Source: Leucoraja ocellata
Lineage: Eukaryota
Assembly: GCA_036785375.1 (NCBI GenBank)
Contig: JAWMAR010000070.1
Coordinates: forward strand, 7,502,001 to 7,566,000
Length of the DNA: 64,000 bases
Direction: 5' to 3'
The position numbers were made by a program, and so were the translations under genes. Shown here piece after piece: positions 1 through 63,307 of the stretch (positions are counted from its first letter, which is position 1; each line of letters begins with the position of its first letter). The notes beneath the pieces were generated by a model. The model did no database searches. It had not been told where the DNA came from and saw only the letters and a program-made list of their open reading frames with translations.

Positions 1-43
1 GCTGTTTGAACGCTCCCGCACACCCGACGCCGAGCCGCTCCCT

Positions 44-3062: not shown

Positions 3063-3079
3063 ACAGGCCTTACCAGGGA

Positions 3080-4033
3080 TTGGGGTTATCGGAACGAACA
3101 ATCACCACCATGTCGGCGTCCCTGCGAGTCTCTACCAAGAAACAGTACTTGACCTACATCAGGAAATGGGAGCAGTACTGCTTGGATGCAGGGACATCAT
3201 ACAAGACAGCCTCGATCACGGACGTGCTGGAATTCCTGGCCCACTTGCACCATGACCAAAAGATGAGCTACAGTGCCATCAATGCAGCACGGAGCGCCCT
3301 GTCCGCTTACCTTATGCCTACAGGACATCGCAGCATTGGATCCCACCCTCTGGTTATAAAACTCCTCAAAGGGATTTATAATACTAAACCCCCTACACCC
3401 AGATACACCCATGTATGGGATGTAAGTGTAGTTTTGTCACACCTTAGAGGTTGGCCTCCGGTGGGATCCTTGAGTCTGGAGCAGTCCACTCTCAAGACCC
3501 TCATGCTCATGGCGCTCGTCTCTGCACAAAGGGTTCAGTCGCTGCATCAACTAAGACTGGACAACATGGTAACCACCCCAGATTCCATTACATTTACCAT
3601 GCCGGGGTTGGTAAAACAAAGCAGGCCAGGTATGCCCAACTCTCCGTTAATCTTCCGGGCCTATCCTCCAGAACCTAGGCTGTGTGTAGTGACCCATCTA
3701 TACAACTACGTAGACACAACCCAAACGCTTAGAGGGAGTGAAAAAGCCTTATGAGTCAGCCACAAAAAGCCTTTTGGACGGGTTACCAGCCAGACAATAT
3801 CTAGGTGGTTGAAACAGGTCTTAAAAGCCGCGGGGATTAACACGGATGTTTTAAAATCCCATTCTACCAGGGCAGCGTCCACGTCAGCGGCGGAACGGAT
3901 GCAGGTTCCCATAGACCACATCCTTAGTACAGCGGGATGGTCAAGGGAATCAACGTTCCGGAAATTCTACCACAAACCGCTGATGGAGAAGGACTTGTTT
4001 GCGGACAAAATTTTAGAATCTGCAAACTTATAA
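3080..4033 (+). pseudogene. DIRS tyrosine recombinase with a single premature TGA at 3752-3754
   Basis: Catalytic residues AQR, HSTR, AGW and KFY present. The two ORFs are in one frame, separated by one stop (likely TGG>TGA). Confidence 0.9.
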
Positions 4034-6082: not shown

Positions 6083-6628
6083 GATGGGGGTGGGATTGTC
6101 TCTGTTCACTGTTCCCCCAGTTCAGAAGCCTGATAGCAGAGGGGAAGAAGCTGTTCCTGAGTCTGGTGGTGCGCGCTTTCAAGCTTCTGTACCTTCTGCT
6201 AGACAGGACCAGGGAGATGGAGGAATGACCGGGGTGGGACAAGTGATGGAGTCATAGAGTCACAGCGAGACCTTTGGCCCAACTTGCCCGCGCCCACCAA
6301 CGTGCCCCCATCAATACTAGACCCACCTGCCTGCGTTTGGCCCTTACCCCTCTAATCCTGTCCTATCAATGTACCTGTCTAACTGTTTCTTAATCATTGT
6401 GATAGTACCTGCCCCAACTACCTCTTCCGGCAGCTCGTTCCAAACACCCTCCACCCTTTGTGTAAAAAAGTCACCCCTCAGTTTCCCATGAAATCTTTCC
6501 CCCCCCCCCCTCGCCTTAAACCGATGTCCTCTGGTTCTCGATTCCCCAACTCTGGGCGGGTTCAGGGAATGTCATCATGAATCCTACTGAGTTGCAATAA
6601 GGTGACCCATTGTTTCACCCACAGGAAC

Positions 6629-7138
6629 ATGGGACTGCAGAGATGGATAGGATTCATGGTCCTTGTGGAGATGGTGTGGCAAGTCTCCGCAACTGGAACA
6701 GGTCCGATCTCCAGAGAATGGGGAGAGGAAGCAAACTTGCCCGGGTGGAACGCACGGGCCCCTCGGCAAGTCAACAAACAAGATACTCCACAATGCGGTG
6801 CTATATCAGCTTCGACCAAGTTACAATTCACGGATATAGAGACAAGCCAGGGTGGTTCTACTACGCTACCCTGTAAAGTACCCACAGGGAAGGATGGACC
6901 CAAGACTTTTGAGGTCACCTGGACTAAAGGGACGAAGACACTGGCCGTGTTTACTATAGGGAAAGGTGCCAATTATCCAGGGGGGGGCGGCCGCTGGAAG
7001 TTCAAGGAAACAAACGTGGATGAGACACGGGATGCCTCGTTGGTCATCAAGGGTTTACAGAAGAGTGATGTTGGGATGTATTCCTGCACTTGGCAAACGG
7101 GCAAAGATAAATGTAGACTAACTTCCAAGCTGTCATGA
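6629..7138 (+). CDS. Secreted single Ig V-type domain protein 1 (169 aa; signal peptide, propeptide, V domain)
   Basis: Acceptor TTTCACCCACAG at 6624 then ATG; hydrophobic leader MGLQRWIGFMVLVEMVWQVSA; RAPR; V-set motifs TLPC, VTW, RDASLVI, DVGMYSC; no TM segment before the stop. Confidence 0.85.
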   Translation: MGLQRWIGFMVLVEMVWQVSATGTGPISREWGEEANLPGWNARAPRQVNKQDTPQCGAISASTKLQFTDIETSQGGSTTLPCKVPTGKDGPKTFEVTWTKGTKTLAVFTIGKGANYPGGGGRWKFKETNVDETRDASLVIKGLQKSDVGMYSCTWQTGKDKCRLTSKLS

Positions 7139-10573: not shown

Positions 10574-12734
10574 AATCAGGCTGATATTTCACTGAAGTCC
10601 GGAATAAATTTGCTCAAGTAGTTCACGATGCTAAGGAATCTCTGCAGACTGAGCACGTGTGTGGGTGCTGGGAGCTTGTTGATGGCACTGCTTTTCACCG
10701 GATCAGTTTTTAGGCCATCCTTAGTGAACACATGACCTAAGCATTTCACCTCACTTACCCTGCATTTGCATTTTTTAGGGTTTAGCTTGAGGTTGATGGC
10801 CTTGGCGCGATCCAGGACCTTTGTCAGATTAGCATTGTGATCTTCGACAGTTCGTCCAGCAACGAGGATGTCATCCACTACAATGGAGCATGGGTAAACC
10901 GCAAACAACTGCTCCATAGCTTGTTGAAATACTTCACTGGCAGAGCTTATGCCAAAAGGCATGCGAAGAAATTTGTAACGCCCGAACGGAATGCTAGGTG
11001 GTTAACTTAGAGGAGTTGTGTTCCAGCGAAATCTGCCAGAATGAACTCTTGGCATCTAGTACAGTGAATACAGTTGCCTCAGCCATCTGTGCTGCAATCT
11101 TGTCCACAGTGTGCATGGGATAGTGAGGTCATTTAATGCCTGTGTTTAAGTCCTTATGGTTGATGCAAATCCGTATTTCGTCTTTATTCTCCTTCGTTGC
11201 CACAACCATGGTGGAGACCCAATCCGAGGGGTCAGCGATGGGAGCAATCACACCTAGAGATACCATTCCGTTGAGTTCACTTTGAACACGGTCCCGCAAT
11301 AGCATGGGGAATCTTGTGAGCTGGACGGACAACTGGGATTATCTCAGAGTTAATGGTAATTGTGTACTTAGCAGGCAGCCTGCCCCGCTTGTCGTCAAAA
11401 AAAGTTTTGTATTGTGTCAGGATTTGTTGGCTAAAGTCACAGGTTGTAGTCAGATGACAAACAGAAAGGCTGAAGGAGACAAGTCCCAGGTCGTGACGAG
11501 CGTTGGCACCCAGCAGAGACGGCACATGCTCACGAACAACATAGAAACTCAGGTTGTGGACACGTGAGTTAAGACAGCAGCGTAACTCGACTTGACCGAT
11601 AGGGTGCACTGGGCCTCCTGCAAATGGGAGAAGGGAGGCAGTCGTAGGAGTGACGGTGTCTGTTTTTCGTAACTTTTTCAACACAGCTAGACAGATCACA
11701 TTACATCTGGCCCCTGTGTCAACTTTCAGATAAAAGTTCTTGCCATTCATGAGCAAAGCGACCTTGGGGTCTAGTTGTTTGTGTATTGAGTCAGATGGGA
11801 ATGCACATCACAGTCAAAACCTTCGCTAGCAGCCTGCAAATCCGTGGGAGCTGGTTGAGAGCATTCCAACTGCAAGTTCTCATGGCCAAGTGAGTTAACA
11901 GATTGCCTTGTTTGAACTCTGTTGCTACGTGAGCGGCAGAATTTGATGAGATTATTCCTTTTGTAACAAAATCGACATAATTTTCCATACGCAGGGCAAC
12001 GGTCACAAGCAGCAGCATGCAAACCCCCACAGTTAAAACAATTGTCTCATGATAGAGTTATCGGGCACTTGAGGAGAACAGCGAGAGATTTGTTAAGACA
12101 AGGCACTGGCATACATCTCCACAGGCTCACCGTGTCTCTGGCTTCGGGAAAAGAACAAATGCCTCTCCATGACCAAGTTAGTGCGTAACTCACATAACTG
12201 TTGGAATTTGCGTAGTAGGCAATCAGGGTCACAGATAGACTCAGTGGGAACAATCTGGACACCAGCCGGGTCAAACCTAGCCAGTCCATAATAAAATCTT
12301 CTGGCACATCAAGCAGCTTCTGTGCCTGCTAGATTAAGAAGAATTGACGCTTGAACACCGGGAGCAGCAGTAGGGTGAGTTGCTTCAATGTAAAATGAGA
12401 AATCTTCTTCAAATATGCGCCACCTTTCTGCGAGGCCTTCGTGGTGTTACACAGGATCTCTGGGTTTTCTGAGAGCAGAAGCCACAGTAATATATACCGG
12501 AGGAAACAACAAACTAAAATAAAAACAAGGAGTGAGTCCGTCCACTCTGACACCATGTCGATCTTCTGCTATTGGAATAACTTAAGTCACACACGGTGAT
12601 TAAGATCCAAAGACTTTATTAGCGTTACAGCATAGGTAACTTCATCTTAATATGTAACTCAAGACTGAGGGAGAAAGGGCTGAGAAGCTTTCTGTTAAAC
12701 TAGTGGGCGTAGCTACAAAGTATGACTCACAACA
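10574..12734 (-). mobile_element. Degenerate, 3'-truncated Gypsy (Mag-like) LTR retrotransposon
   Basis: Short LTR ~12556-12734 (TGTTG...CGACA, AATAAA 12615-12620); PBS TGGTGTCAGAGTGG (tRNA-Leu-like) 12542-12555; gag double zinc knuckle (CPAYGKLCRFC); protease VDTGA; RT MPFGISSASEVFQ and VVDDIL. Frameshifted and cut before RNase H. Confidence 0.9.
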
Positions 12735-15776: not shown

Positions 15777-16286
15777 TCAATCCATTAACAGCCAGGTCTC
15801 TTCTTCACAATTCCCTTGATTATAAGTGGTCCAAATGCAGGAATATATCGCCTCATCGTCCTCTTGTGCCCGTGTCAGGAGCAACGAGGCGTCCCGATGC
15901 AGGATGACGTTTTGATGCACGAACCACCGATGGACATCAGACCTTTGATAATTCGCAAAGGTCCTATATGTGGCAATGGAAACACCATCTTTACTCCACG
16001 AAACAGAGCTCAGTGCACCGTAATCTTCGGATATTTTACAGTACAGCGTTACAGAACTACCCGGAGATGCAATGATCACATTATGTCTAGTTATGACAGG
16101 CTGACCTAGCCTGCCCTGGCAGTCTGGAAACCGATCTTCATTGACCTGCCGAGGCTCCCGTGCGTTCCACCCGGGCAAGTTTGCTTCCTCTCCCCATTCT
16201 CTGGAGATCGGACCTGTTCCAGTTGCGGAGACTTGCCACACCATCTCCACAAGGACCATGAATCCTATCCATCTCTGCAGTCCCAT
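15777..16286 (-). CDS. Secreted single Ig V-type domain protein 2 (169 aa)
   Basis: Same acceptor and leader as gene 1; REPR; V-set motifs TLYC, VSW, RDASLLL, DEAIYSC; no TM segment. Confidence 0.85.
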   Translation of the reverse strand: MGLQRWIGFMVLVEMVWQVSATGTGPISREWGEEANLPGWNAREPRQVNEDRFPDCQGRLGQPVITRHNVIIASPGSSVTLYCKISEDYGALSSVSWSKDGVSIATYRTFANYQRSDVHRWFVHQNVILHRDASLLLTRAQEDDEAIYSCIWTTYNQGNCEEETWLLMD

Positions 16287-16869
16287 GTTCCTGTGGGTGA
16301 AACAATGGGTCACCTTATTGCAACTCAGTAGGATTCATGATGACATTCCCTGAAGCTGCTGCCACCACACTGGGCAATGTCACTGTGCAGCTTCTACAGC
16401 TCCCGCCTGGTTTAGTTTAAGTTGCTTTGACCTGTCGTGGACCAACAACATTGAAGTGGCAGCCAAGGAGGCACACCAATGCATCTACTTCCTCAGAGAC
16501 AGAGGAAATACGACAAGTCTCCAATGTCTCTTAGAAACTTCTACAGATGCACCACAGAGAGCAGACTGTGGGGTTGCATCACAGCTTGGTTTGGGAACAG
16601 CTCTGAGCCCAAGATCACAAGATATTGCAGAGTTGTGGATGGAGCCCAGTCCATCACACAGACAACACTCCCCACCAGTGACTCCATCTACAACCAAAAA
16701 AATCAAAGACTTGTCCACCCCAGTCAACCCTCCTTCTCCCTGGTCCTGTCTAGCAGACGGTACAGAAGCTTGAAAGCGCGCACCACCAGACTCAGGAACA
16801 GCTTCTTCCCCTCTGCTATCAGGCTTCTGAACTGGGGGAACAGTGAACAGAGACAATCCCACCCCCATC

Positions 16870-44004: not shown

Positions 44005-44929
44005 TTACAGTAGGGATCATAGCCCATAGTTAAACCAGAATCAGAGGTGCCACATTGACATGTGGAACTAAACCGGCATTGTTCTACTATTAATACTACT
44101 ATCACTTATGACCAAACCTGAACACAATACTGGGGAGAAAGCAGGAACAGGGTACTGATTCTGGATGATCAGCCATGATCAAGTTGAATGGCGATGCTGG
44201 CTCGAAGGGCCTCATGGACTACTCCTGCACCTATTTTCTATGTTTCTACTGTCAAACAGTTTTATACAAGGTGCTATTACTGATTGAACAGGGTTTTTTT
44301 CAGTAGTGTTAAGGTTATTAATTTAGTGAAGTATTTTGTTTATTATATGTTATCTATGAGTATTGTGTTGACATCCTGTTCTGCTGCTGCAGGTAAGAAT
44401 GTAATTGTTCCATTGTTGGTACATATGACAATTAAACACTCTTTAAAGTTTAGTTTAGTGATACAGTGTGGAAACAGGCCCTTTGGCCCACCGAGTCCGC
44501 ACCGACCAGCGATCCCAACACATTAACACTATCTTACACAACAGGAACAAGTTTTACATTTATACCAAGCCAATTAACCGTTACGTCTTTGGAAACCCAC
44601 ACAGGTGACGGGGAGAACGTACAAACTCCATAGACTTGATGGGCTGAATGGCCTAATTCTACTATTCCTTATGACCTTATGATCACCAATCAACCATATA
44701 TTAATTCTATTCTACACACCAGGACATTTCTTGCACCTGCAGATCTTTGGAATGTGGGAGGAAACCAGAGCACCAGGAGGAAACCCAGGTGGTCCCAGGG
44801 AGAACATTTATAGTGGAGCCTATTTGGAGGTTGTTGTGTCTAATTGCCTGACGTTGTAGGCCTGGGCTATTGTAAGTATCTATGAAAGGAGATCTGTTGC
44901 AGAAGCTTTGCACCGACTGAACTATCTCT

Positions 44930-45159
44930 GCTACAAGTGTCTGCGCTCCATCAGAAATATCAATGGCTCCTCTCCCTGCAGCAGAAGAGGAGGGGGCAAG
45001 AGAAGACTTTGTGCTAACCACATTGATGGTATGTACGGTGATCTGAGGGACCCAGCCAACGTCTATCGATGCTTTAGAGGAGAAGCAATTGCACAATATT
45101 GTGCCCGTGGATTAGTGTTTGCCAAAGAATGTAAATATTGCAACAAGCTTGCCCTCTGA
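44930..45159 (+). pseudogene. Orphan terminal chitinase exon (linker + CBM14), apparently frameshifted
   Basis: CANHIDGMYGDLRDPANVYRCFRGEAIAQYCARGLVFAKECKYCN aligns with the chia CBM14. Linker VCAPSEISMAPLP is in another frame. AATAAA ~45222. Confidence 0.75.
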
Positions 45160-47224: not shown

Positions 47225-50200
47225 ATGGTAAAGATCATCTTCTGCGCTGGTAAGAATGACATTCAACTATATATCTGAACAATCAGAAGCTCGGTTAATG
47301 GCCTTAAACCTTGCAAACATGATGGATTTTTTAATCAATTTCTTGAAGCATCCTGCACAACTCTAATCCTACCCAACCAATCACTACGAACAACACCTTG
47401 CGCTACTGTGGACTTGTTTTCTCATTGTGTATTGTTGCCCCAATGTCTTCAGATTTATTTTTCCAGTATTTTTATTTTTCACCATCTTGTAGAGTGCTCC
47501 AGTTTTCTCCCACATGCCAAAGATGTGCGGGTTTGCAGCTTAATCGGCCTTGGTATATTGTCCCTAGTTTGTGGGGAGCCGGTGCAAAAGTGGGAAAACA
47601 TAGAACTATTGCGAACCGTTGATCGATGGTCGGCGTGGACTCGGTGGGCCACAGAGTTTCCATGATATATCTTTCAATCCATTCAATTTATACCTCATTT
47701 ATGTGCAATTCATCTAATATTTATATATGTTTTCGTCTGTTGTCCGAGTCCAAGATTTTCTATATTTTGTTTCTATTATTTCAGTGGGATTCCTGCTGTT
47801 GTTACAAGCATACAATGGTAAGCAGCATGCACTGAATTTATCCCATATCAACACCATGAATATTTATGCCGTCATCGGTCAAAGTTAATCTAATCAGCTG
47901 TCGTTTGTTGCAGAGTGAAAATCTCAAATACAGGTGTTGATAGCAATTTACTGTAGATCACAGTGAATGGCGGTGCTAGCTCGAAGGGCCAAATGGCCTC
48001 CTCCTGCACCTATTTTCTATGTTTCTACGTTAATCATTGTACGAAAATACTTTCATTTATTGAGCACAATACTGGGGGTGGGAGATTGCAACCTTCACGT
48101 GGTCCGCCCTGTTTCGATTAATTCAATCAACCCGACGGGCACAATCAAATAAGATCAAATAGAACAAGTTGTCCGACAACTTTAGGCTGTGCACGCCATA
48201 TGCAAGGGGATGAAGAAGAAGCACAAAGGTACACAAAATTGCTGGAGAAACTCAGCGGGTGCAGCAGCATCTATGGAGTGAAGGAAATAGGCAACGTTTC
48301 TGGCCGAAACCCTTCTTCAGACTGAATTAAGAAGAAGCACAATACTGGAGAACACAGATAGGTGACGATTTGGTGTAAGATTATTTTTCGGAATGAGCTT
48401 TGAAGCTGGGTCTCGACCTATCCATGTTCTCCAGAAATGATGCCTGACCCGCTGGGTTACTCCAGCACTTTGTCTCTTTTTGTGTAAACCAGCATCTGCA
48501 GTTCTTTGTTTCTGCTTTCATTTACACAAAGGCTATCTGCCAGTAGGAAGTGCTTCCATTTCGAAGCTTCAAATGGGTTTTCTAATTGCATTTAATAAAA
48601 AATTCAACTGACAACTTTTTTGAAACCAGTTTTAAGCCAGGACTACAAGATAGTTTGTTACTACACAAACTGGGCACATAAACGAGGAAACTGCAAGTTC
48701 CTACCAGAAGATATCAACCCCAAGTTATGTACACATCTGATCTACGCCTTCGCTGTTATTGGCAAGAACCATGAAATGGTCCCACAGCAGACAGAGGATG
48801 AAAACCTCTATGAGTCGTTTAATAATCTGAAAAAACGGTACGTGAATTTACGAGACCTTGCAACGATTGTTAACTTAAATGTTTAATTCCACTGCAAATC
48901 TCTTCACAGGAAACTATCACAATCAGTTGAGTGCAGGGGGATGAGGGGTGATCTCATTGAGCTGGATAAGATTATGTGAGGAATAGAGATGCACAGAGTC
49001 TCTTGCCGCGAGTAGTGGAATCGAGGACCAGAGGACAAATGTTTAAAGTGAAGCGGGAAAGATTTAATAGGAAGCTGAGGGGTAACGTCCTCACACAAAG
49101 GGTGGTGGGTGTATAGAACAAGCTGCCAGAGGAGGTAGTTGAAGCAAGCACTATCCCAACATTTAAGAAGCAGTTGGACAGGTACATGGATAGGACAGGT
49201 TTAGAGGGATGTGGACAAAGTGTGGGCAGGTGGGACTAGTGTGGCTGGGACATGTTGGCTGGTGTGGGCAGTTTGGGCTGAAGGGTCTGTTTCCACACTG
49301 TATCACTCTATATCTATCTCACTTTTTGTTTAAATGAGGAATTGGTTTTCAAAATCTATGCAGGAAATTACCATCAGCTTAATATTAAATATATGTAGGA
49401 ACATATTGTACCGTGCAGAAATGAGTCTAAAATAATGAGAGGAAATCTCTCATGAGAAAGGTTTCGGTGGTAACCATTAAGTGTCCTGTTAAAACAGTTA
49501 AGAGTTCAATACTGAAACTAATTAGTTAGTGTTGACAAATAGAACTTTTTTTTTTCACAATTCACAATTGCATTAAACCACTGTGGATTTATTCATCTTT
49601 AGTCATTTCCAATTCCCAAGCCTCCTTTAGTTTAGTTTGGTTTAGAGATATAGCGTGGAAACAGGCCCTTCGGCCCACCGAGTCCGCACCGACCAGCAAT
49701 TCCCGCGCATTAAGACTACCTTACCTACACACACACTAGGGACAGTTTACACTTAAACCAAGCCAATTAACCTACAAACCTGTAAATCTTTGGAGTGCGG
49801 GAGGAAACCGAAGATCTCGAAGAAAACCCACGCAGGTCACGGGGAGAACATACAAACACCATGCAGACAGCACCCATAGTCAGGATCGAACCCGTGTCTC
49901 TGGAGCTGCAAAAATCTGTAAGACAGTGCGGCCCAAAATTCTGATTTATTCAATTACTTAAATTTAAATTTTGTACTGGCTCCAGTGGGACTTGAACTCA
50001 TATCCCTGGATCAATAATCCAGCTCCCAGTCCACTCATTTAACTGTTCTCCCCGTGACCATGTGGGTTTCCTCCTCGTGCTCCGGTTTCCTCCCACTCCA
50101 AAGACACGCAGGCTTGTAGATTGAAGTCGGGTTTCGGCCCGAAACGTTGCCTATTTCCTTCGCTCCATAGATGCTGCTGCACCCGCTGAGTTTCTCCAGC

Positions 50201-53200
50201 AATTTTGTGTACCTCAGGCTTGTAGATTAATTGGCTTCTATAAATTGTCCCCAGTGTGTGGGATAGAACAAGTGTACGGGGTGATCGTTGGTCTGAGCAG
50301 ACTCGGTGGGCCGTAGGGCCTGTTCCCACGCTATATCTCTAAAACTAAATAGATATGACGAATGTACAAATATGCAGTCTGTATGGACTCCATGTAGATG
50401 GGGTTTACATGTGTGCTTGTGTTATCCGTCTTAAATGGAATCTAAAAGAGTAACTTTACCCATCAGCGTGTTATTTATTGGGTAAAGGACATGGAAACTA
50501 GTTTCAGACGGAGGCTGTTCCAGCTACCTTGTGTTGTTACTTCACAGCACTTCAACGTGGGCTGGGCCATAGAAAGCACTTCAGAGAATTGTTGTACTGA
50601 CCTCCAAAAATGAAAAGTTGTTGATGGAGTCAGATTTATTTTTCTTGCCTTTGTGCTTTTTAAAAAATAAAATAATTTCCTCTGATTTCCACAGAAACCC
50701 AAACTTACGAACACTCTTATCCATTGGAGGCTGGAATTTCGGAACTGAAAAGTAAGGCTCTTTCTTGAATTAAATTTGAGAGAGAGCGCTGCCTTACAGC
50801 GCTGGACACACGGGTTCGATCCCGACTGAAAGTGTTGTCCATGTGGAGTTTGCACGTTCTCCATGTGACCATGTAGATTTTCTCCGGGGACTCCAGTTTT
50901 CTCCCACATCTCAAAGACATGTTGGATTAAAGGATAATCGGCCCCCTGTAAATTGCCCCTGGTGCGTAGGGAGTGGATGAGTAAGTGGGATCACATAGAA
51001 CTCGTGATCAATAATCGGCCTGGACTCGGTGGGCCGAGGGGACTCTTTCCATTTTAGTATCTCTAAATTAAACTGATGACTGGGTCACTGACCACAAGAA
51101 AATACAGAACTATCCCAGATTGTGTGCCAGTAGATATGTATGCAATCAAACCTGTCTGCTTAACTGAGTAAAAGAGTTTAATAGATCACACTGAACTTCC
51201 GAAGACAGATAAACCGGATGTTTATTTTTATCACATGTGATAAAATCCAATCATATCAGATAACAAATGAACGCATCTATCCATGTACATATTGGTTTAC
51301 AAAATTAATCCTTCAAAATGCCTGACTTTCATGGATTTGAAGTTTATTACATGGGTTTCTGTAATAAATGATCTGGAGTGAAACACAAAGCACTGGAGGA
51401 ACTCAGCAGGTCAGGCAGCATCTGTGGAGGAAATGGTCAAACAATTCACACAAATTCATTCATGTCATACACAAGTACTGCAAGAACATAAGACATTGGA
51501 GTAGAATTAGGCCATTCAGCCCATTGGGTGTGCAATAGTGATGGAAGGAACTGCAGATGCTGGTTTACAACGAAGATACACACAAAATGCTGGAGTAACT
51601 CAGCAGAACAGGCAGCATCTCTGGAGAGAAGGAATGGATGAGGTTTCAGGTCGAAACATCGCCCATTCCTTCTCTCCAGAGGTGCCGCCTGTGTTACTCC
51701 AGCTTTGTGTCTATCCATAGTTCGACAGGTTGAGCAAAGAGAAAAATACCAGGGTGCAGAATATAGTTTTTCAGCACTGAAACGTAACAGTTCCAGAGAA
51801 AAAGTCAACTGTAGCAATGAGGTAGGTTGGAAAATGGGGACAGTGCCCCAGCTTATGGAAGAAAATAAGATCAGAGTCTGGTAGTGCACCCTTTCAAGCT
51901 TCCATATCATCTGCCCGACATTCAAATTCGTACAATAGGTGGAGCTAAGGGGGAGATACAGAGTTCAGAATAGTTCTCAACATTGTAGCGCATCAGTTCC
52001 AGGGACAAAGTCCAATGTCCGCAATGGGGTTGAGATGAATCGGACAGTACTCTAGTTTATGAATGGACCATTCAGAAGCGTAATAACAGAGGGGAAGAAG
52101 CCGTTCCTGAGTCTGGGAGTGGTGATATGAGGGTTATATCACTGGTATATTTGGGTCACCTCAGTGGATAACCGGTGAATGGAAAATAACAACCACTAAA
52201 CCTCACTCCAGGGTCCCGACTCGAAACGTGGTCTGTCCATTTCCTCCACGGATGCTGCCAGACCCGCTGAGTTACTCCAGCACTTTGTGTTTCTCTCCAG
52301 ATCGTTTATTACAGAAATAAGAAACTTCAAATACTCAAAGTCTGGCATTTTGAAGGATTAGTTTTGTGGAATGGCAGTGTACCGAGCAGCCATCAGGGGC
52401 CGTGTGTGTTGTCAGGTGGGAATATTTCACTATTATCCATCTGCTGAGTTTGGAAAACTCAATTCTGAAAGGACTTGTAAAATTAAAAAAAGACACAAAG
52501 TGGCGAAGAAACTTAGCGAGTCTCTCAGCAACATGGAATGGTGATGTTTCGGGTTGGGATCCTTCTTCAGACGTTACAGTGGTGGGGGGGGGGGGGGGGA
52601 GCTGGATGAGGGTAGGGGGCATGACAAAGCCTGGCAAGTGCTAGGCAGGAAAATTCTGGAGTAATTCAGCGAGTCAGGAAGCATCTGAGGCGAATATGGA
52701 TGTGACATCTTGGATTGGACACTTCTACAGATGGATTGTTGTGAGGGGAGAGTTGGGGGCGAGTGATGGGTGGATACAGGTGAAGGCATCCAGGACAGAA
52801 AGGTCAATAGGGGATGAGAAGGGGAGTTAAAATGGTTAGCAACCAGGAACTCCAGCAGAGCCAAGAGTTCTAGTAAAAAATAAAACATCCTTCTCAGCCA
52901 TTTATCACAAGGCCAGAAGCTTTATGCATGAAGATTATGCTGACTACCTCCTTCCCAAACATATTTCATGTCAGGTTCACCGCCATGGTTTCCAGTAAAG
53001 AAACTCGCTTACTATTCATTACGTCTGCGATCGAGCTTCTGAGGAAAGCGGAGTTTGATGGTTTAGACCTGCACTGGGAGTTCCCCGGCTTTAACCGCAG
53101 CCCACACGAAGACAAGCAACGCTACACTGACTTGGTCCAGGTGAGTGTAGACTTGGTTTATACTCTCTAGAATTTAGAAGATTGAGAGGGGATCTTATAG

Positions 53201-56200
53201 AAACTTACAAAATTCTTAAGGGGTTGGACAGGCTAGATGCAGGAAGATTGTTCCGATGTTGGGGAAGTCCAGGACAAGGGGTCACAGCTTAAGGATAAAG
53301 GGGAAATCCTTTAAAACCGAGATGAGAAGAACTTTTTTCACACAGAGAGTGGTGAATCTCTGGAACTCTCTGCCACAGAGGGTAGTTGAGGCCAGTTCAT
53401 TGGCTATATTTAAGAGGGAGTTAGATGTGGCCCTTGTGGCTAAGGGGATCAGGGGGTATGGAGAATACGGGATACTGAGTTGGATGATCAGCCATGATCA
53501 TATTGAATGGCGGTGCAGGCTCGAAGGGCCGAATGGCCTACTCCTGCACCTAATTTCTATGTTTCTATGCGAGCTGAACGCATCACAAATCTCGAGACAC
53601 AAGGAACTTGTCTGGACAAAGTTTTTACACAGAGGGTGGTGGGTGCCTGCAACGTGCTGCCAGGGGTGGTGGTGGAGGCAGACACGGCAGTAACGTTCAA
53701 TAAAGAATCAGGAGTGAAACACAAAGTGCTGGAGTAACTCAGAGGGTCAGGCAGCGTCTGTGGAGGGAATGGACAGCCGACATTTCGGGTCGCCACCCAG
53801 AAGTGAGGTTGTAAAACGTTCAATTCATGACAGGCACGTGGATATGCTGGGAATGGTGGGATATGGATCACGTTCAGGCAGAGATTAGTTTAACTTGGTA
53901 TAGTGTCGGCACTGAAATACTGATAGATTTCCAAATGGAATCGGGATGCTAAAGAGTGGAGCAGTTTCCAAATGGAACAGAGAGTTTCTATATCCCCTTC
54001 ACTCAGATGGTGGTGGGCAAAGATTCTACAGCGAGCAAGGTCGACCACTCGACGAAAAAGATGTAGTACCGTCATGGGCAAATTCGTGGGTAATTTTCGG
54101 CCCCATTTCCGTAACCAGCTTCCGTCTCCGCACCAAAGATCCCGTAGCGGAGCAAAGATACTAGTGCGGAGATGGAAGCCGGTTACGGAAACATCCTCGT
54201 AAAAATAAAAGTTCTTTGGTAAAAATCTTCTCCTCATTTTCAGAATTTTAATTTATTAACACAAACTGTTCCTCCGCAACGTTGATTACACTGCGAGTCG
54301 GGTCGGGCCGGGTCGGGTCGGGTTACTGGAATGGATGAAAAGAAGGCCCACTTTCTGCTCCGTTGCATACTACATGTCAGCCCATTGCATTTAGCAGGAG
54401 TGGTCTATCTTGCTCCGCTATAGGATCATTGGTGGTGGGTATATGGAATGAGCTGCCAAAGGAGGTAGTTGAGGCAGGGACTATAACATTATTTAAAAGA
54501 TATTGGGAGAGGTACATGGCTAAAAAAGGTTTAGAGGGATGTAGGCGGAATGTGGGACCAGCGTAGATGGGGCATCTTAGTCGGCATGGGCAAGTTGGAC
54601 TGAAGGGCCTGTTTCCACAATGTCTGACTCTCCGACTCAGAGTGGAACTTCAGGGACAAACAGCAAAGAGTCACCCACACTTCGGCCCCATCTAGCCTTC
54701 TGCTCAGCTGAAACAAAGCATCTTTCCCAAGACCTTCGGCCTCTCCTTCACCCTGGGGCTGGCGTATTCCACAGGAAATAATGCAACCTAGTCATAATCA
54801 TTAATGATGAGAAACATTCCTATACATTCGCTCCTCTGTCACCAGGCAACTGAGCCATCCTCTCACCAGCTAGAGAGTGGTCCTGACCTCCCAACCTCCT
54901 CATTAGAGACCTTTGAACGATCTTTAATCGGACTTTACCTTGCAGTAGATGTTATGCCCTTGATCCTGTATCTGTACACTGTGGACGGCTTGATTTTAAT
55001 CACCTATAGTCTAATCAATGATTGGATAGCACAGAAAAACCACTTCATTGTACCTCAGTAAACATGACAATAATAAACTAAACCGTTTGAAATCTCAATT
55101 TCATTTTGGAAATCCATCCTTATTCCCATCTGTATCTGTTCTTGTGAATGGCTTGATTGGATTCAGGTACAGTGTTATGTAATTCAATGGAATAGTAATG
55201 ACCATGTTCTTGGTTCTTGGTTTCTTGGTCCTCCAAAATATTCCAGATGGAATTTAAACTGGAGGTGGTGAAGGGAGGGCTTAAGCCAGAAAGGGTTATT
55301 GGGAAGAAAGAGCTACTTTAAATGTAGTTGCATCTGGTTGGGTAACTATAGTTGGGTGGAGATTATTCCATGCTTTAATTGTGCGGGGGAAGAACGAATT
55401 GCTGTACCAACACATCTGTCTCTGTAGCTGGGATCACAAATTGGATCGAATGCCCTTGTCTGCTCCATGTTAATTATATATTCATTAAGTCCATGCCATT
55501 TGTAATCTGTCGTTCATCAGATATCATTGATGTAATCTGCCTGACAAACTCTTCACTATTTTATTAACTAATAGGAACTCCAGGAAGAATTTATAAAGGA
55601 ATCAAACGAGACCAACAAACCGCGATTGCTACTTTCTGCTGTTGTAGCATCTGGAATAAGAAACATTCAAGCAGGTTATGAAATAGAGAAGATTTCAGAG
55701 TACGTTGGGAGTTTATTTTGTACCTGGTGCGGCTTTAAGCTTTGAAGATGTTCATCGTAAAACTGAAAACAATGAGGAAAGACACAAAGTGATGGAGTAA
55801 ATCATCGGGTCAGGCAGCATCTCAAGAGAGCATGGATATGTTATGATTTGATCGAGACCCTTCCTCAGACTGATGAAGGATCCCATCCTGAAATGTCACC
55901 TATCCATGTTCACCACAGATGCTGCCCGACCTGCTGAGTGGCTCCAACACTGTCCTTGGTAAACCAGCATCTTCAGTTCCTTGTTTCTACTGAAAATAAT
56001 AACCACGGCTTTGAATAAGGGCCAAGGCGTTACAAAACTATCCAATGAACACTTCAAACTGGGCACGAGACACAAAGACATTTGCAACCAAGGAAAAATA
56101 ATTGAGAACAAACTTATCAGCCACTATGGTGGTAATATTAGTAATGCAAGAGGAGAGGGAGTGATGTGGTGAAAGGACCAGTGGAATGGAGACACAAGGA

Positions 56201-59200
56201 ACTGAAGCTGCTGCGATCTTGATTAAAACACAAAGTGCTGGAGGAAGTCAGCACATCAGGCAGCATCTGCGGAGGGAATAGATGTTTTGGGTCGAGACCC
56301 TTCTTCAAACCAGTGAACTGGTTGGGTTGGCAATAACTGGCTAGATGGATCTATACGGATCAATTACATTTTAATTTCCTATCACGTAAGATTGACCAGG
56401 AGAGCCAAGGAACTGCAGAAGCTGGAATCTTGAGCAAAACTGGAGGAACTCAGTTGGACAGACAGCATCTGTGGAGGGAATGGGCAAGCAATGTTTTGGG
56501 TTGGGACAGTCTGAAGAACATCATCTGTCCATCCCCTCTACAGACGCTGCCTGGCCCGCTGAGTGCCTCCAGCACTTATGTTTTGATGAAGATTGAAAGA
56601 TAACCGTGGTAAATGCTATTGTTAATCTTTGCAGCCGTGATATCAATGCCTGCAATAGCAACCTCCTTCAGTTCCATTCTCAACTAGCTGTTGTTTTTTG
56701 CAGACACATGGACTTCATCGGTGTGATGACCTACGAGTTCCATGGTCCATGGGATCTAAAAACTGGACCTAACAGTCCACTGTACAAGAGCTCTGATGAC
56801 TATAATGATGACAGATACTTCAATGTAGTATGTACTGACATCTTTCATGATTTCAATTTACATCCTTTCTCCAGTTCTCTAAAGTTTAGTTTAGTTTAGA
56901 GATACAGTGTGGGAGGTACAGTGAGGCCCATCAGATCGCCACGTCCATGCTGACTGGCGATACGCTAGTTCTAGCCTACACACGAAGGACAATTAACCTA
57001 CAAACCTGCACGTCTTTGGAATCTGGGAGAAAAACCACGCGGATAACATACGAACTCCACATAGACAGCACCCATAGTCAGGATCGAAACCGGGTCTCTG
57101 GTGCTGTCAGGCAGCAACTCTACCGTTGCGCTACTTTGCCAATGTACATTTGGGAACACAGAGAATGAATGAATGAACAAATACTTTATTGCCACATGAC
57201 AAGTCACAGTGAAGTTATTTGTTTCTGCATATGCCAGGTATGCAAAGAGTGGCCACATAAAGTGCAGCAACAAAGTATCCCGCCCCATGTCCTCCTTTGT
57301 TCTCTCCAAGATGCTGCAGTTGGAATGTGTGGTGGGATCGGGACAAAGCCTGGAAAGTGATAGGTGGATACAGTTGAGGGGAGGCTTATTGGTTACCACA
57401 TGGTTGGACAAAAGCCCAGACATGAAAAGACAAAAAGTGTGAGATAAGGAGATAAGCATAGAAGAGTCGCGAATTGTGAAGCCAGAGGAAGAAATATATT
57501 TGAAAGGGGAGAAGGAAGAGGAGAAATGGGTGTGTATCCAGGCGGGGCACAGGGAAGAGATGAGGTGGTGAAAAAAAGGGAATGGGTAGTTAGTAGACTA
57601 GTTACCTGAAATTGGAAGTCAATATTCATTGCATAGGGTTGGAAGATACCCAGGCAAAGTCAGTTCCGATGTAATCCTTTCTCGTAGGAGTTTGCAACAA
57701 ATTACTGGAAGCAAAATGGAGCTCCGGCAGAAAAGCTCTTGGTGGGATTCCCAACGTACGGACGGACATTTACTCTCTGCTCTGCCGACAACAAGCCTGG
57801 TTCTGCAGCGTGTGGACCTGGCACTCCGGGGAACTGCAGCAAAGCCGCTGGCATTTTAGCATACTCTGAGGTACGGTGTGACTGCAGTTTGACCCTACTA
57901 TGAAAGGGAATGCACTTCAATTATCACCACTAATTGCCACCATCACTAGCAATCGATACATTTGGCCCCTCTTGGAAATATGTAGATTTATCATAGCAAC
58001 ATCTGCATGAAAAGACATTTGGGCAGGTACATGGATAGGAAAGCTGGGAGGGATATGGGCCAAACGCGGGCAGGTGGGACTAGTGTAGTTGGGACATGTT
58101 GGTCGGCAGGGCAAGTTGGGCCAAAAGGGCCTGTTTCCACTCTATGATTTACTTATCACAGTGACACAGTTCTCATAGAATCATAATTACACAGCACAGA
58201 TACAGCCCTTTCAGCCCAACCTGCCTATGCCAACCAGAAGCCCCATCTACGCCAATCCTGCCTGCCCGCCTTTGGCCCATAACCCAGTAAACATTTCCTA
58301 TCCATGTACCTGTCCAAATGTCTTTGAAATCTTGTTATTGTGTCTGCCTCAACTACCTCCGCTGGCAATTTGTTTCATTTACCCACCACCCTGTGTGTGA
58401 ACAATTCCAAACCCTCTATCTTCTTCCATAAACCAATTGTGTATCCAGGGAGCAAGCTCACTCTGGCTTCCATGCGATCTAACCTTATAAAATGGAAATG
58501 TTATCATTATAAATTTACCAAAACAATTATCATAACAGTACCTCTCCACCATCGAAGGGATTGACAGGAGGCTTTGTCTCAAAAAACGCAGTCAGCATCA
58601 TCAGAAACTCTCATTTCACCCCTGCCGTCGGGAAGAAGGTACAGGAATCTGAAAAACCATGACTTCCAGGTTCAGGAACAGCTTCATCCCAACAAACATC
58701 AGGCTCTTGAACACTGCAACCACCGACTAAACTAAGAATAACATATTGTCTTGGTTACAGGAAATTTTTGCTTTTGTTTTTACACAAATATTGCCATTTT
58801 TTAGTTTATTATGTTATCTATGAGTACTGTGTTTACAGACCTGATATGTTTCTGCAAGTAAGAAGGGTCTCGACCCGAAAACATCACCTATCCATGTTCT
58901 ATAGAGATGCTGCCTGACCTGCTGAGTTCCTCCAGCACTCTCTGAAACGTCACCTATCCATGTTCTCCACAGATGCTGCCGGACCCGCTGAGTTACTCCA
59001 ACAAGCTGTGTCCTTTTTAGATTTTCATTGTTCCATTGTTGGTATTTATGAAAATTAAACACTCTTGAATCTTGAATGTCCAGTGAGGTGGAGATAAAAT
59101 AACAATTAGCAACAAAATAACCAGGAACCTTTACATCCTCCCTGTGGAATTCTAGTAATACATTTCCAAGGGGACACAGGCTGCATTTATGTAGCATCTT

Positions 59201-62200
59201 TCACTCACCGTGAAACACTTTGAAGCAATGATAAAGGTCTTTGCTATTATTACAGGTGTGTGACTTTTTGAAAGGAGCCCATAAAGAATGGATTGAGGAA
59301 CAGGAGATTCCATACGCATACAAAGATGATGAGTGGGTTTCTTATGACAATTTGAGGAGCTTTGAGAAGAAGGTATGTATTTTATTGGAACATTTATTGC
59401 ATGTTCCTGATATATCTTGTATAATGGATTGCACATGTGCAGTTTACATGGTCTCCTTTTAACTGTAGGGAATTCTTCCAAGTGCTCCATCTACACAGAA
59501 CAGCACAGCACCAGACCCTTCAGCCCACAATCTCCATGCTGGACATACCAAGTTAAACTCTCTCTGCCTGCACATTATTTTCCTCCCGTATCTGAAAAAT
59601 TGCTGCACGAGATGGATTGGCCACTGTAGTTAGCTCCCATATAGGTGGCAGGCAGGTGTGATCAGTATGCATGTGAGAGAATAGGTGACTCAATGGGCCA
59701 AATGGCCTTTTTTTTGTATGTCATGAGAAAACCAAGAGTAAATGAGTCCACCTGGGCTATATAATGTGCACGGCAGGTGGTTTCAGTTGGCCAAGATATT
59801 TATTTCTTGAGAATGTGAAAGCAAAACTAGTTTCAATGTTGATAACATTAAGTAATTCTCAAGAAATATATCCATCATTCTTGGACTTATGTTAAAAATT
59901 ATAATTTATCCAAATGTTTTTCTTTGCAAGGATTGAAAAAATGTGGCCATTTAATTATTGCTATACAGCAACGGGTGAACAGGTGAAACCCCTCACCTGT
60001 GTTCACCTATCACCATGTTCTGTCCTGCCCCTCATCTTTTCCCACTTTTGTTCCTGCCCCCCCCCCCCGTGCAATATGTCCGATTAAGGGTGCCTGACCG
60101 AAACGTCACCAGAGATGCTGCCTGACCCGCTGAGTTACTCCAGCACTTTGTGTCTTTCTTTAGTACAAAACAAGCATTTGTAGTTCCTTGTTATTGCCCT
60201 TTAAGAGGATGTTCCCACTGTGGCGGGAAGTTTTGTCTCAGGCAAGGTTAAACATAATTGCAGAAGCAAGGTCAGAAGATTGAAATCAACCATCCACTCG
60301 CTGAACATGTGGACTGGACATGTTTGTTACAGAGCCTCGTGAATTCATCCTTAATTTATGTAGTTTATGTATAAATTATGTTTTGTGCATTGCCTGAATC
60401 TATGTAACTGTGATGCTGCTGCAAACAAGATTTTCATTGTACCTCTACCTCACTGTATTTGTATCAGTATTGGTTAAATCTACCTGATCTCCTGGCTACC
60501 GCCTAAACCAGTCCGATTTCTCGGCTACTAAACATTTTAACCGCCCCTCCTCCCATTCCCACACTGACATTTCTGTCCTGGGCCTCCTCCATTGTCAGAG
60601 TGAGGCCCAGCACAAATTGGAGGAACAGCACCTCATATTTCGCTTGGACAGCTTTCACCCAGCGGTACGAACATTGACTTCTCTAACTTCAAGTAACCTT
60701 GCTTTCCCTCTTTCTCCATCCCTCCCTCTTCCCAGTTCTCTGACACTCTTACCGTCACCCATTCCTTCTCTCCAGAGATGCTGCCTGTCCCGCTGAGTTA
60801 CCGCAGCATTTTGTGTGTATCATTGGTTTATTATTAGATAGATACAAAATGCAGGAGTAACTCAGCAGGACAGACAGTATTTCTGGAGAGAAGGAATGGG
60901 TGACGTTTCGGACGTGTACTGAGATGCAGTGAAAAGCTTTGTTAATGTGACAATAAGCAGAACTCGACTTGACTATTTGATTTTAGAGATAACAGCACGG
61001 AAACAGGCCCTTCCACTCACCGGTTCCGCGCTGACCAACGATCACCCCGTACACTAGCGCTATCCTACACACTAAGGACAATTTTACAATTTACAGAAGG
61101 CAATTAACCTACATCCTTGGAGTGAGGAAACCAGAGCACCCAGAGAAATACCACACGGTCTCAGGGACAAGGTACAAACGCCTAACAAACAGCACCCGTG
61201 GTCAGGATCGATCCCGGCTCTCTGGTGCTATAAAGCAGCAACTCTACCATTGCACCATTTGCAGCCGTATTGCTTAGGTAATCGGACAGCAATCAAGAAC
61301 AATGTTTCTCTGGCAGTTTGTTTTGTGGCTTTTGGGGCTAATGTAAGCATCTAGAAACAAGGAACTGCAGGAACTCAAGGAACTGAACCTTGGGCTCCAT
61401 GTGACCTTGCATGGGGGTCGGTCTTGTAAATCTGCAGCTAAATATTAATTATTAAATAATCTGGATTAGCGAGATGATTTGCAATCTAGGCTACCTATTA
61501 AATGTTAAATTATTTTCAGGTGGAATGGTTGAAAAATAACAGCTTTGGGGGTGCAATGGTATGGACAATCGATATGGATGATTATGAAGGTACTTCCTGT
61601 AACCAAGGACAATTCCCCCTTATTAATAAACTCAAGGTTATGCTTTCGTCAGGTTCTGGACCCACGGATGAATCGTCAGGTAACTAAATTACATTTGCAT
61701 TTGCATTTCAAATCAAGATATTTACATTTTCTATCAAATATTTAAGCATTAATTATGCCATTATAATCATGCTGTCTACAAAACCTTTCTGGGTATGCAA
61801 TTTTGAAAATAATGGACATTTAATAAAATTAAAGAGTTTATTATAAGTTAATGCAGGAGGGAGACATGAGATGGAAGATCACAGCACTACAGGTGCTTGG
61901 AGTTCTGAAACAATAACAGAAAGTCGTCGCAGATCAGCTAGCATTTCAGATCTTGCTCCATTTATCAGAATCAGGAAAGAGACAAAACAAGAGAGGAGAC
62001 AAAATAAACTGCAGATGCTGGATTCTTGAGTAAGACAGAAAGTGCTGAAGGAACTCAGTGGGTCAGACAGCATCTGTGGGTCTGTCCATTCCCTCAACAG
62101 ATGCTGCCTGTCCCACTGAGTTACTCCCCAAAAAGGGAGAACACAAGTTAGTTTTCGGCAGAAGACAAGCTCGGAGAGAGATGGAAATATCTTGGCAACC

Positions 62201-63307
62201 AAATGAGTTAATACAGCAGTTTGAAGCACATTTTGCTTCCTTGTCAATATGGGCAATATTGTTAATAGGTAGGCTCTGGGATATGCACAACAAGCCCGGG
62301 GGAAGTGGGAGGTTCACTTGCTGTTCACGTTTAGAGATACAGCGTGGAAACAGACCCTTTGGCAAACAGAGTCCGAGCTGACCAGCGATCATCCTGTACA
62401 CTAGTTCTATGTCCTACACAATTAACCAACAAACCTGCATGTGGGAGGAAACTGGAGAGCCCAGAGGAACCTTAGTGTGAATGGGTGATCAGTGGTCGAC
62501 ATGGACTTGATGGGCCGAAGGGTCTGCTTCCATGATGTATCCTTCAATCAACAGTGGAAATCCCAAATCTTTTTTCCCCCACCTACATGTGGTAGTGTGG
62601 GAATTTCCTGCAGCTCCCGGAACACAGATTCAGACCAGGAGAGGCATCTTGAAACATTATCATCAGCGAGCTTTGCACCATCATCATGCCGATAATGGAT
62701 TAAGGTTACGCGTGAAGATATTGGTGTAGAGTTAATCATGTTGCTGTTCGTACTTTCAGAGACAACACCACTGTCCATTTGTTCATCAGATTCACAGGTA
62801 TCCGACCCCTGCCCCAATCTGGAATTTTGCGGAGGTAAAAAGGATGGTAACTATGCAGTGGAGTGTACTGCGGACAGTTTCTATCAGTGTACCAACAACG
62901 ACACCGAGATTCTAACGTGCTCCAGAGGTACTTCATACAACGCGGGCAGAGACAAATGTGTCTGGCCACCCAGGTTAATTCCAGCCATCAATTTGGCAGA
63001 CAGTAACTTTTGCAAAACCAAGCTCGACGGTGCATATGCAATCCCGGTTCCCTCGTACTACAAATGCAAAGCTGGGCAGATGCGCGTGAAGAAGTGCTCC
63101 TCTGATCTACTCTACGATGCAGTCAGCAAGAAATGCATCAGTGCAAACACATTTAGCGACTACGATGTGTCCTTCTGCAGTAGTAATGAAGATGGGACCT
63201 ATCCCATCCTTGGCAGACCAAACAAATACTATCACTGCCTGAATAAGGATACCAATGTAGGGAGCTGTCCCAAGGGGAGCTTCTACAATAATTTCTGTAA
63301 ATGCTGA
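47225..63307 (+). CDS. GH18 chitinase-like protein with DxxDxHxE motif and three CBM14-like repeats (~581 aa, 11 coding exons)
   Basis: Exons: 47225-47249, 47785-47817, 48630-48837, 50695-50751, 52975-53140, 55575-55699, 56704-56827, 57688-57870, 59256-59372, 61520-61679, 62760 (or 62790)-63307. GT-AG, same phases as chia, open throughout; AATAAA 63331-63336. Confidence 0.92.
54018..54431. mobile_element. MITE with 8-bp TSD (hAT- or P-superfamily) inserted in a CR1 fragment
   Basis: Imperfect ~33-bp TIRs CAAAGATTCTACAGCG.../...CGCTATAGGATCATTG; GTGGTGGG at 54010-17 and 54432-39. Confidence 0.75.
55205..55410 (-). mobile_element. 3' end of a non-LTR retrotransposon (CR1-group, Crack/Daphne-like)
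   Basis: Minus strand encodes YSNSFFPRTIKAWNNL...FK then a short tandem (CAAGAAC-like) tail. Confidence 0.6.

Follow-up and report, generated by a model that had tools for sequence, protein, structure and literature searches.

A GH18 gene of Leucoraja ocellata, here called gene B, is best read as a cartilaginous-fish-specific paralogue within a chitinase gene cluster. Comparison of the predicted proteins indicates that a single CBM14 was triplicated within the last exon before chimaeras and elasmobranchs diverged, and that the active site was remodelled afterwards on the shark and ray stem, Asp138 being replaced by His and Asp213 by Glu with retention of Glu140 and the groove aromatics. The gene product is proposed to be a low-activity chitin-binding protein, in which the GH18 groove and the first CBM14 repeat (R1) would grip chitin and the second and third repeats (R2 and R3) would act as spacer or partner modules; a probability of about 0.45 is given to this reading. 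The gene lies in a window of 64,000 nucleotides (the whole stretch of DNA that was analysed), for which a sequence-only reading had drawn attention to the triple tail. The altered catalytic centre was absent from that reading and is the most informative feature with regard to function.

Gene B consists of 11 exons on the plus strand (47225-63307), and every intron has AG/GT splice sites. The open frame is predicted to encode a protein of 581 aa of the secreted GH18 type with a signal-peptide-like N-terminus. Gene B resembles CHIA (AMCase) and CHIT1 in its signal peptide, GH18 domain, hinge and CBM14, and its 11 coding exons have the intron phases of the adjacent CHIA-like gene A, with which the protein shares 46% identity. 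It differs from CHIA and CHIT1 in having three CBM14 repeats, in the replacements Asp138 to His and Asp213 to Glu (in elasmobranchs), and in belonging to a clade of its own. PF00704 (GH18) gave 331 bits, scored on the orthologue of Rhinoraja longicauda, whose GH18 domain is 97% identical, and not on the spliced protein of the window. The best PDB match of the gene B protein was CHIT1 (E 2e-140).

Exon 11 starts after a pyrimidine-rich AG just before 62760 and is open up to the TGA at 63305-63307, exactly where the sequence-only reading had placed it. The donor at 61679 and the acceptor at 62760 are both of phase 1 and compatible, and the acceptor ranked first among the 125 AG sites in 61720-63300 with a splice matrix trained on 19 other acceptors, 62760 being left out. 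The view that exon 11 is the last exon of an intact secreted GH18 gene, joined to exon 10 by a predicted splice, is supported by these results, in agreement with the earlier assignment of the exon to this gene. Since the phases are the same as in gene A and the acceptor at 62760 is top-ranked, exon 11 corresponds, in enlarged form, to the last exon of CHIA with its hinge and CBM14. The features of gene B are collected in Table 1.

Table 1. Features of gene B, with positions counted from the first letter of the window
Feature	Position	Strand	Remarks
Exon 1	47225..47249	+	25 nt; ATG and start of signal peptide; size and phase as in exon 1 of gene A; orthologues match the N-terminus
Exon 2	47785..47817	+	Remainder of signal peptide; AG/GT
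Exon 3	48630..48837	+	Start of GH18 barrel; equivalents of Tyr27 and Trp31; extra Cys41
Exon 4	50695..50751	+	SxGG motif; equivalent of Trp99
Exon 5	52975..53140	+	Catalytic strand, DxxDxHxE
His141 codon (CAC)	53072..53074	+	Position of catalytic Asp138 of CHIT1/AMCase
Glu143	53078..53080	+	Equivalent of Glu140; kept, invariant
Exon 6	55575..55699	+	
Exon 7	56704..56827	+	Includes Glu216 codon (56735-56737), at the Asp213 position
Exon 8	57688..57870	+	Insertion domain; three extra conserved Cys (277, 288, 296)
Exon 9	59256..59372	+	
Exon 10	61520..61679	+	Last part of GH18 barrel, first part of hinge; donor of phase 1
Exon 11	62760..63307	+	S/T/P hinge, three CBM14 repeats and stop
CBM14 R1	62825..62968	+	Keeps Trp468 (equivalent of Trp465); extra conserved Cys435; upstream Cys417 (62810)
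CBM14 R2	63008..63142	+	Four core Cys; no Trp465 equivalent
CBM14 R3	63173..63304	+	Stops at Cys462 equivalent; no Cys463 or Trp465; five Cys; most conserved repeat
Poly(A) signal AATAAA	63331..63336	+	

Ten further species of sharks and rays, and a chimaera, have orthologues with the same architecture. When exon 11 was searched among longer proteins, 10 of the 273 candidates matched, with 60-91% identity; they come from nine species of sharks and rays, and all of them are labelled 'acidic mammalian chitinase-like' in the databases. With the Rhinoraja protein as query (1,870 matches among 8,000 scored candidates, of which the best 120 were examined), matches were also obtained in Chiloscyllium, in Pristiophorus and in a chimaera, Callorhinchus milii (V9KD90). 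Three CBM14 were found by Pfam in 12 of 34 vertebrate proteins chosen from these 120, namely in 10 elasmobranchs, Callorhinchus and Umbra. With a CBM14 profile of our own, 13 of the best 120 of the 1,870 matches had three consecutive modules, and 12 of the 13 fell in the gene B clade. This agrees with the earlier view that a vertebrate GH18 with three CBM14 is unusual. That such proteins might prove common in vertebrates, a caveat attached to that view, was not borne out, although the architecture does recur (in Umbra and other ray-finned fish). Incomplete tails were seen in the models of Pristiophorus and a partial Scyliorhinus, which stop inside R1, and in one tailless whale shark isoform (P0070, P0024, P0035).

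In GH18 trees, which were quick trees with SH-aLRT support only and the second of which was made from 31 of 72 rows, the chondrichthyan gene B sequences formed a clade (SH-aLRT 100) apart from CHIA, with the chimaera as sister to the elasmobranchs. Gene A clustered with CHIA (SH-aLRT 97). Neither tree gave the deeper GH18 nodes a firm order, and the rows included no labelled reference for CHIO, the 'other' chitinases of fish. In a tree of the CBM14 repeats, built from 50 columns only, the repeats clustered by position with the chimaera included (R1 94, R2 99), and R3 formed no clade. The positional grouping indicates that the triplication is older than the split between chimaera and elasmobranchs, and the repeats have not been homogenised since. 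The Callorhinchus orthologue (V9KD90, P0022) is 60% identical over the full length and has three CBM14 in the same order; it differs in that both Asp residues are kept, the protein being presumably active, and in that the last two cysteines of R3 are missing. No description of gene B or of any chondrichthyan triple-CBM14 chitinase was found in the open-access literature, a scope that did not extend to the blue shark stomach chitinase (Suzuki 2014) or to Hussain and Wilson 2013. The proteins are already present in public databases under a generic name, and the architecture and the active site are undescribed in the open literature searched.

GH18 catalytic residues are altered in exon 5, where the motif DxxDxHxE takes the place of the canonical DxxDxDxE. 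His141 together with Glu216, at the Asp213 position, was found in 12/12 elasmobranch rows, and the chimaera has Asp at both sites. Asp213 is present in 37/37 outgroup rows; these 37 of the 72 rows were picked for an intact motif, which makes their count at position 141 circular. Among the best 120 of the 1,870 matches the His motif was found in 14 records, all from elasmobranchs, and in one divergent second domain of another record, the search being done by regular expression and yielding no motif in 6 of the 120 proteins. Other elasmobranch-fixed changes at conserved sites were seen at positions 189, 216 and 336. The groove residues Y30, W34, W102, W221, Y270, R272 and W361 are invariant in 12/12, as are the equivalents of Glu140, Met210 and Tyr212. 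The Trp71 region differs from CHIT1, and the GH18 domain has four extra conserved cysteines compared to CHIA and CHIT1. A Phe private to this species, against all 11 orthologues, is present at the Tyr141 position (53081-53083, plus strand); Y141F is tied to reduced activity in mouse CHIT1 (PMC12502790, in excerpt).

Asp138 is described as catalytically critical; it holds the acetamido group in place and relays protons to Glu140, and the +1 sugar is bound by Asp213 (PMC11182645 and PMC12502790, in excerpts). A His at position 138 would offer no carboxylate for these two tasks, and hydrolysis would be much reduced. The secreted protein would hold chitin both in the GH18 groove and by means of R1, and would probably work like a chi-lectin with a binding tail. 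R2 and R3 are assigned a role as spacer and as partner-binding or anchoring module because the binding Trp is missing in both, and they would still fold as CBM14. The unpaired conserved cysteine of R3 could form a disulfide to a partner. Chitin might in this way be coated or tethered in a mucosal gel, either the gut membrane or the gel of the electrosensory canals, or ingested or microbial chitin might be bound, with digestion left to the neighbouring canonical CHIA-type gene A. Chitin is made by chondrichthyans (bioRxiv 10.1101/687301), and the ampullary gel is held together by proteins (PMC8379299, in excerpt).

Several findings count against the low-activity reading, among them the incomplete tails of some database models and the fact that Cys407, found in this species only, makes its number of tail cysteines even. 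Another is the invariance of the Glu140, Tyr212 and Met210 equivalents, which would also be expected of a re-tuned enzyme, with an Asp136-His138-Glu140 relay shifting the pH optimum, the substrate preference or the balance between hydrolysis and transglycosylation, and with the tail as a long substrate-anchoring arm. Such an enzyme would fit the occurrence of the same replacement, His, in all 12 elasmobranch rows with no drift, the other fixed changes alongside it and the 83% conservation of the GH18 domain. Middle-Asp mutants of Serratia chitinases are hyper-transglycosylating. As a general precedent, GH18s have been turned into transglycosylases by mutations of catalytic residues (a title cited in PMC6131217, in excerpt). 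We regard a re-tuned enzyme as the main alternative but as less likely than the low-activity reading, as invariance would also be predicted by a binding site alone and Asp213 is kept by all 37 outgroup domains. Vertebrate GH18s with a broken motif, such as salmon Chia.5, are regarded as loss-of-function proteins, the residues not being given in the excerpt of PMC10234404, and narbonin, which is inactive despite its Glu (PMC3662789, in excerpt), indicates that a kept Glu is no guarantee of activity.

Like the mammalian chi-lectins CHI3L1, CHI3L2, Ym1 and OVGP1, and like salmon Chia.5, gene B has a damaged GH18 motif with the groove aromatics retained. Unlike the mammalian chi-lectins, which are not known to have any CBM14, it has three. 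It also differs in keeping Glu140, which classical chi-lectins have lost, and by that lost-Glu definition (PMC1945033, in excerpt) gene B would not be classed as a chi-lectin, though the groove residues are retained. From its predicted protein, gene B is placed as a member of the GH18-CBM14 family that is neither a CHIA orthologue, nor a chitinase with the canonical motif, nor a peritrophin.

The presence of three CBM14-like repeats in a single exon, as claimed earlier, was confirmed by scanning each repeat alone with PF01607 (gathering cut-off 22.1 bits), R1, R2 and R3 giving 36.1, 30.0 and 26.0 bits, respectively. The entire exon gave three stretches with E=1.7e-18. The repeats are mutually divergent, again as claimed, with 16/46, 14/44 and 13/42 identical residues in the pairwise comparisons, and they resemble the single CBM14 of gene A (16-17 identical of 44-48) about as much as one another. 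At the DNA level no meaningful similarity among R1-R3 was found, the best cross-match having an E of 0.87, and Tandem Repeats Finder gave no array over the repeats. The exon peptide was shuffled 100,000 times; the repeat pattern, drawn up post hoc from these repeats themselves, matched one or more times in 2 of the shuffled sequences and three times in none of them.

The cysteine counts are non-standard, in line with the sequence-only reading, with six in R1 (including the upstream Cys417), four in R2 and five in R3. R1 and R2 have the cysteines of the core disulfides, invariant in 12/12, which correspond to Cys420-440 and Cys450-463 of CHIT1 (pairing taken from PMC4844120, in excerpt). R3 aligns ungapped to CHIT1 418-462 and then ends without Cys463, Trp465 and Asn466, and the second core disulfide is lacking. 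The observation that the third repeat has no terminal CNW was therefore correct for R3, but R3 is not the sole case, as R2 is also without the terminal Trp. A Trp465 equivalent is found only in R1 (W468, 12/12), and none is present in R2 or R3 in all 12 aligned sequences. R2 of this species has also lost the Pro451 equivalent. R2 and R3 are basic, with pI values of 9.4 and 8.4. Mean identity among 11 elasmobranch sequences was 83% for GH18, 81% for R3, 67% for R1, 64% for R2 and 52% for the hinge; R3 is not decaying, because it has the highest conservation among the repeats. Fifteen tail cysteines are invariant in 11/11 elasmobranchs and 13 in the chimaera, both odd numbers, and Cys569 in R3 is without a canonical partner in all sequences, so one tail thiol should be free for another partner. 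The private hinge residue Cys407 (62780-62782, plus strand), not found in the 11 orthologues, is the 16th tail cysteine in this species.

An AlphaFold2 model of exon 11 from a 61-row alignment consisted of three separate beta modules, with a mean pLDDT of 79 and a low pTM (0.46). CBM14 structures came first in fold searches with this model, namely EHEP, the CHIT1 module, Der p 23, Avr4 and tachycitin. EHEP was the top Foldseek match (E 8.9e-10), and its rmsd of 10.8-16 A means that the likeness is at the repeat level only. R1 matched Der p 23 with a Z of 6.9 and an rmsd of 1.6 (48 aligned), and one repeat matched the CHIT1 module with an rmsd of 0.9 over 49 columns. The best fold Z was below 8; R2 and R3 have the same strand pattern as R1 in the model and were searched only within the whole tail. 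Matches in the ESM Atlas were confined to generic clusters of CBM14 with low recognition, the predicted tail homodimer scored 0.25 against a mark of 0.32, and a full-length AlphaFold2 model (10-sequence alignment, pLDDT 47.8) was set aside.

For the CBM14 of CHIT1, Trp465 is reported as key for binding, its loss abolishing or most strongly impairing it; every cysteine is needed, and Pro451 and Leu454 contribute (PMC4844120 and PMC5459812, in excerpts). The multivalent chitin cross-linker proposed by the sequence-only reading is not sustained as stated, as R2 and R3 lack the Trp465 equivalent and EHEP, the nearest solved protein with three CBM14, binds no chitin. A non-digestive role of matrix type becomes more plausible by another mechanism, in view of the replacements of Asp138 by His and Asp213 by Glu. 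If all three repeats did bind chitin, the protein would be a tri- or tetravalent, peritrophin-like cross-linker of fibres, and all three do score above the Pfam cut-off, form separate modules in the model and have conserved core aromatics. Chitin-contacting residues vary among CBM14s (PMC10619976, in excerpt), and by analogy R2 and R3 may bind without the Trp. That variability cuts both ways, since the two proteins that head the structural matches, EHEP and Der p 23, bind no chitin according to the same excerpt. The absence of Cys463 and Asn466 from R3 and of Pro451 from R2, together with linkers of just 10-12 residues between the repeats, makes such a cross-linker improbable, and a better fit to it is offered by the fish proteins with young, mostly Trp-bearing repeats.

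Among these fish proteins is that of Umbra pygmaea (P0106), a GH18 with three CBM14 and an intact motif. A scan of 1.84 billion representatives with exon 11 gave 257 matches, and 5 of the best 150 carry GH18. In three of those GH18s (P0122, P0127 and P0240) the catalytic Glu is missing and 4, 16 and 25 CBM14 stretches are present, which contradicts, for predicted proteins, the earlier statement that chi-lectins are without CBM14; all of these multi-CBM14 fish proteins are predictions, some possibly mis-joined. The three proteins sit among ray-finned-fish GH18s (SH-aLRT 99). The ray-finned-fish proteins (P0106, P0122, P0127, P0240) are like gene B in that a GH18 is followed by 3 to 25 CBM14 stretches, and unlike it in being nested among ray-finned-fish GH18s and in their repeats. 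Within each protein inspected the repeats are similar or near-identical, mostly with the canonical terminal aromatic, which points to younger, separate expansions. In an AU test a single origin for all multi-CBM14 GH18s had a log-likelihood 30 lower and was not rejected (p-AU 0.089); an independent origin of the ray-finned-fish and chondrichthyan arrays is favoured, not proven. P0122, P0127, P0240, P0123 and P0134 have leaders like those of fish chitinases, followed by a Glu-less GH18 with 4-25 CBM14 or by CBM14-only arrays of 7-13. Judged by their predicted sequences, these five look like better candidates than gene B for a vertebrate peritrophin-like matrix protein.

EHEP of Aplysia kurodai (PDB 8IN3) and the invertebrate peritrophins share with gene B three divergent tandem CBM14 folds, but they have no GH18 and another six-Cys spacing, and the ligand of EHEP is phlorotannin, not chitin (PMC10619976, in excerpt). 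The peritrophin-A spacing, with disulfides 1-3, 2-6 and 4-5 (same excerpt), is found in none of the repeats, R1 being without the downstream sixth cysteine, R2 having four cysteines and R3 five. A further idea is that an Asp-His-Glu relay splices or trims chitin and that a disulfide-linkable triple tail builds a soluble chitin gel, for example that of the gut membrane or of the ampullae of Lorenzini. We consider this a long shot; if true, this would be the missing protein behind the occurrence of chitin, itself insoluble, in hydrogel form in sharks and rays. Mammalian chi-lectins have immune or mucosal roles of lectin type. The ligand of gene B could by that token be something other than polymeric chitin, either another GlcNAc glycan or, for the tail, non-sugar ligands such as the tannins held between the domains of EHEP, the top fold match (PMC10619976, in excerpt). 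With the EHEP likeness confined to single repeats, and with canonical chitin-binding residues retained in the groove and R1, this is very improbable. Although a stray CBM14 exon does occur in the window (44902-45159), the notion that exon 11 is foreign to the GH18 gene, or that it is a duplication in decay, is hardly tenable in view of the canonical phase-matched splice sites with a rank-1 acceptor, the poly(A) signal, the same fused protein predicted in 11 other species and the 15 tail cysteines invariant in 11/11 elasmobranchs.

Few of the proteins that organise chitin in fish have been identified, and vertebrate chitin biology is young (PMC10234404 and PMC8379299, in excerpts; bioRxiv 10.1101/687301). 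Gene B is a concrete and conserved candidate, filed in the databases as an ordinary acidic chitinase, and may represent a further independent origin of chi-lectins in vertebrates. Should it prove to be an ordinary chitinase with an extended tail, it would be a modest lineage-specific domain expansion. Nature has provided, in the chimaera and elasmobranch proteins, a before-and-after comparison of the effect of His at the Asp138 position of a GH18, and no experiment on an Asp138His GH18 was found in the open-access literature. The elasmobranch-fixed Asp-to-His site with its intact chimaera counterpart is a stronger reason for follow-up than the triple tail.

Gene A (29247-19645, minus strand) is intact, with 11 exons and 477 aa; it is of CHIA type, with DxxDxDxE, a Gly-rich hinge and one CBM14, and stands head to head with gene B at a distance of 18 kb. 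The orphan CBM14-like exon at about 44902-45159 (plus strand) scored 27.2 bits and has no terminal Trp, its own stop and an AATAAA near 45222. A tblastn search with 120 proteins detected no GH18 exons upstream of it, and none of 10 candidates among proteins of 148-2000 aa proved to be a longer homologue; it could be a relic or the final part of a small gene. Its assignment to the N-terminal part of gene B was rejected, as it has a stop and a poly(A) signal of its own and lies upstream of exon 1. A candidate internal exon of 121 nt (37691-37571, minus strand), in unique DNA, lies between the chitinase genes; its donor is strong, and a single frame is open. Two inverted single-ORF genes, at 6581-7138 (plus strand) and 15777-16334 (minus strand), have near-identical signal-peptide-like N-termini of about 60 aa, whereas their Ig V-set domains, scored by Pfam at 41 and 32.8 bits, are divergent. 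V domains beside chitin-binding genes recall VCBPs, with no link to a CBM14 exon shown. At 11277-11807 (minus strand) an open frame of 176 aa is retrotransposon protease-like by the look of its translation. Overlapping frames at 2-3754 (plus strand) gave matches to reverse transcriptase and weak Dam-like and integrase SAM-like matches, which is consistent with a DIRS-type retroelement.
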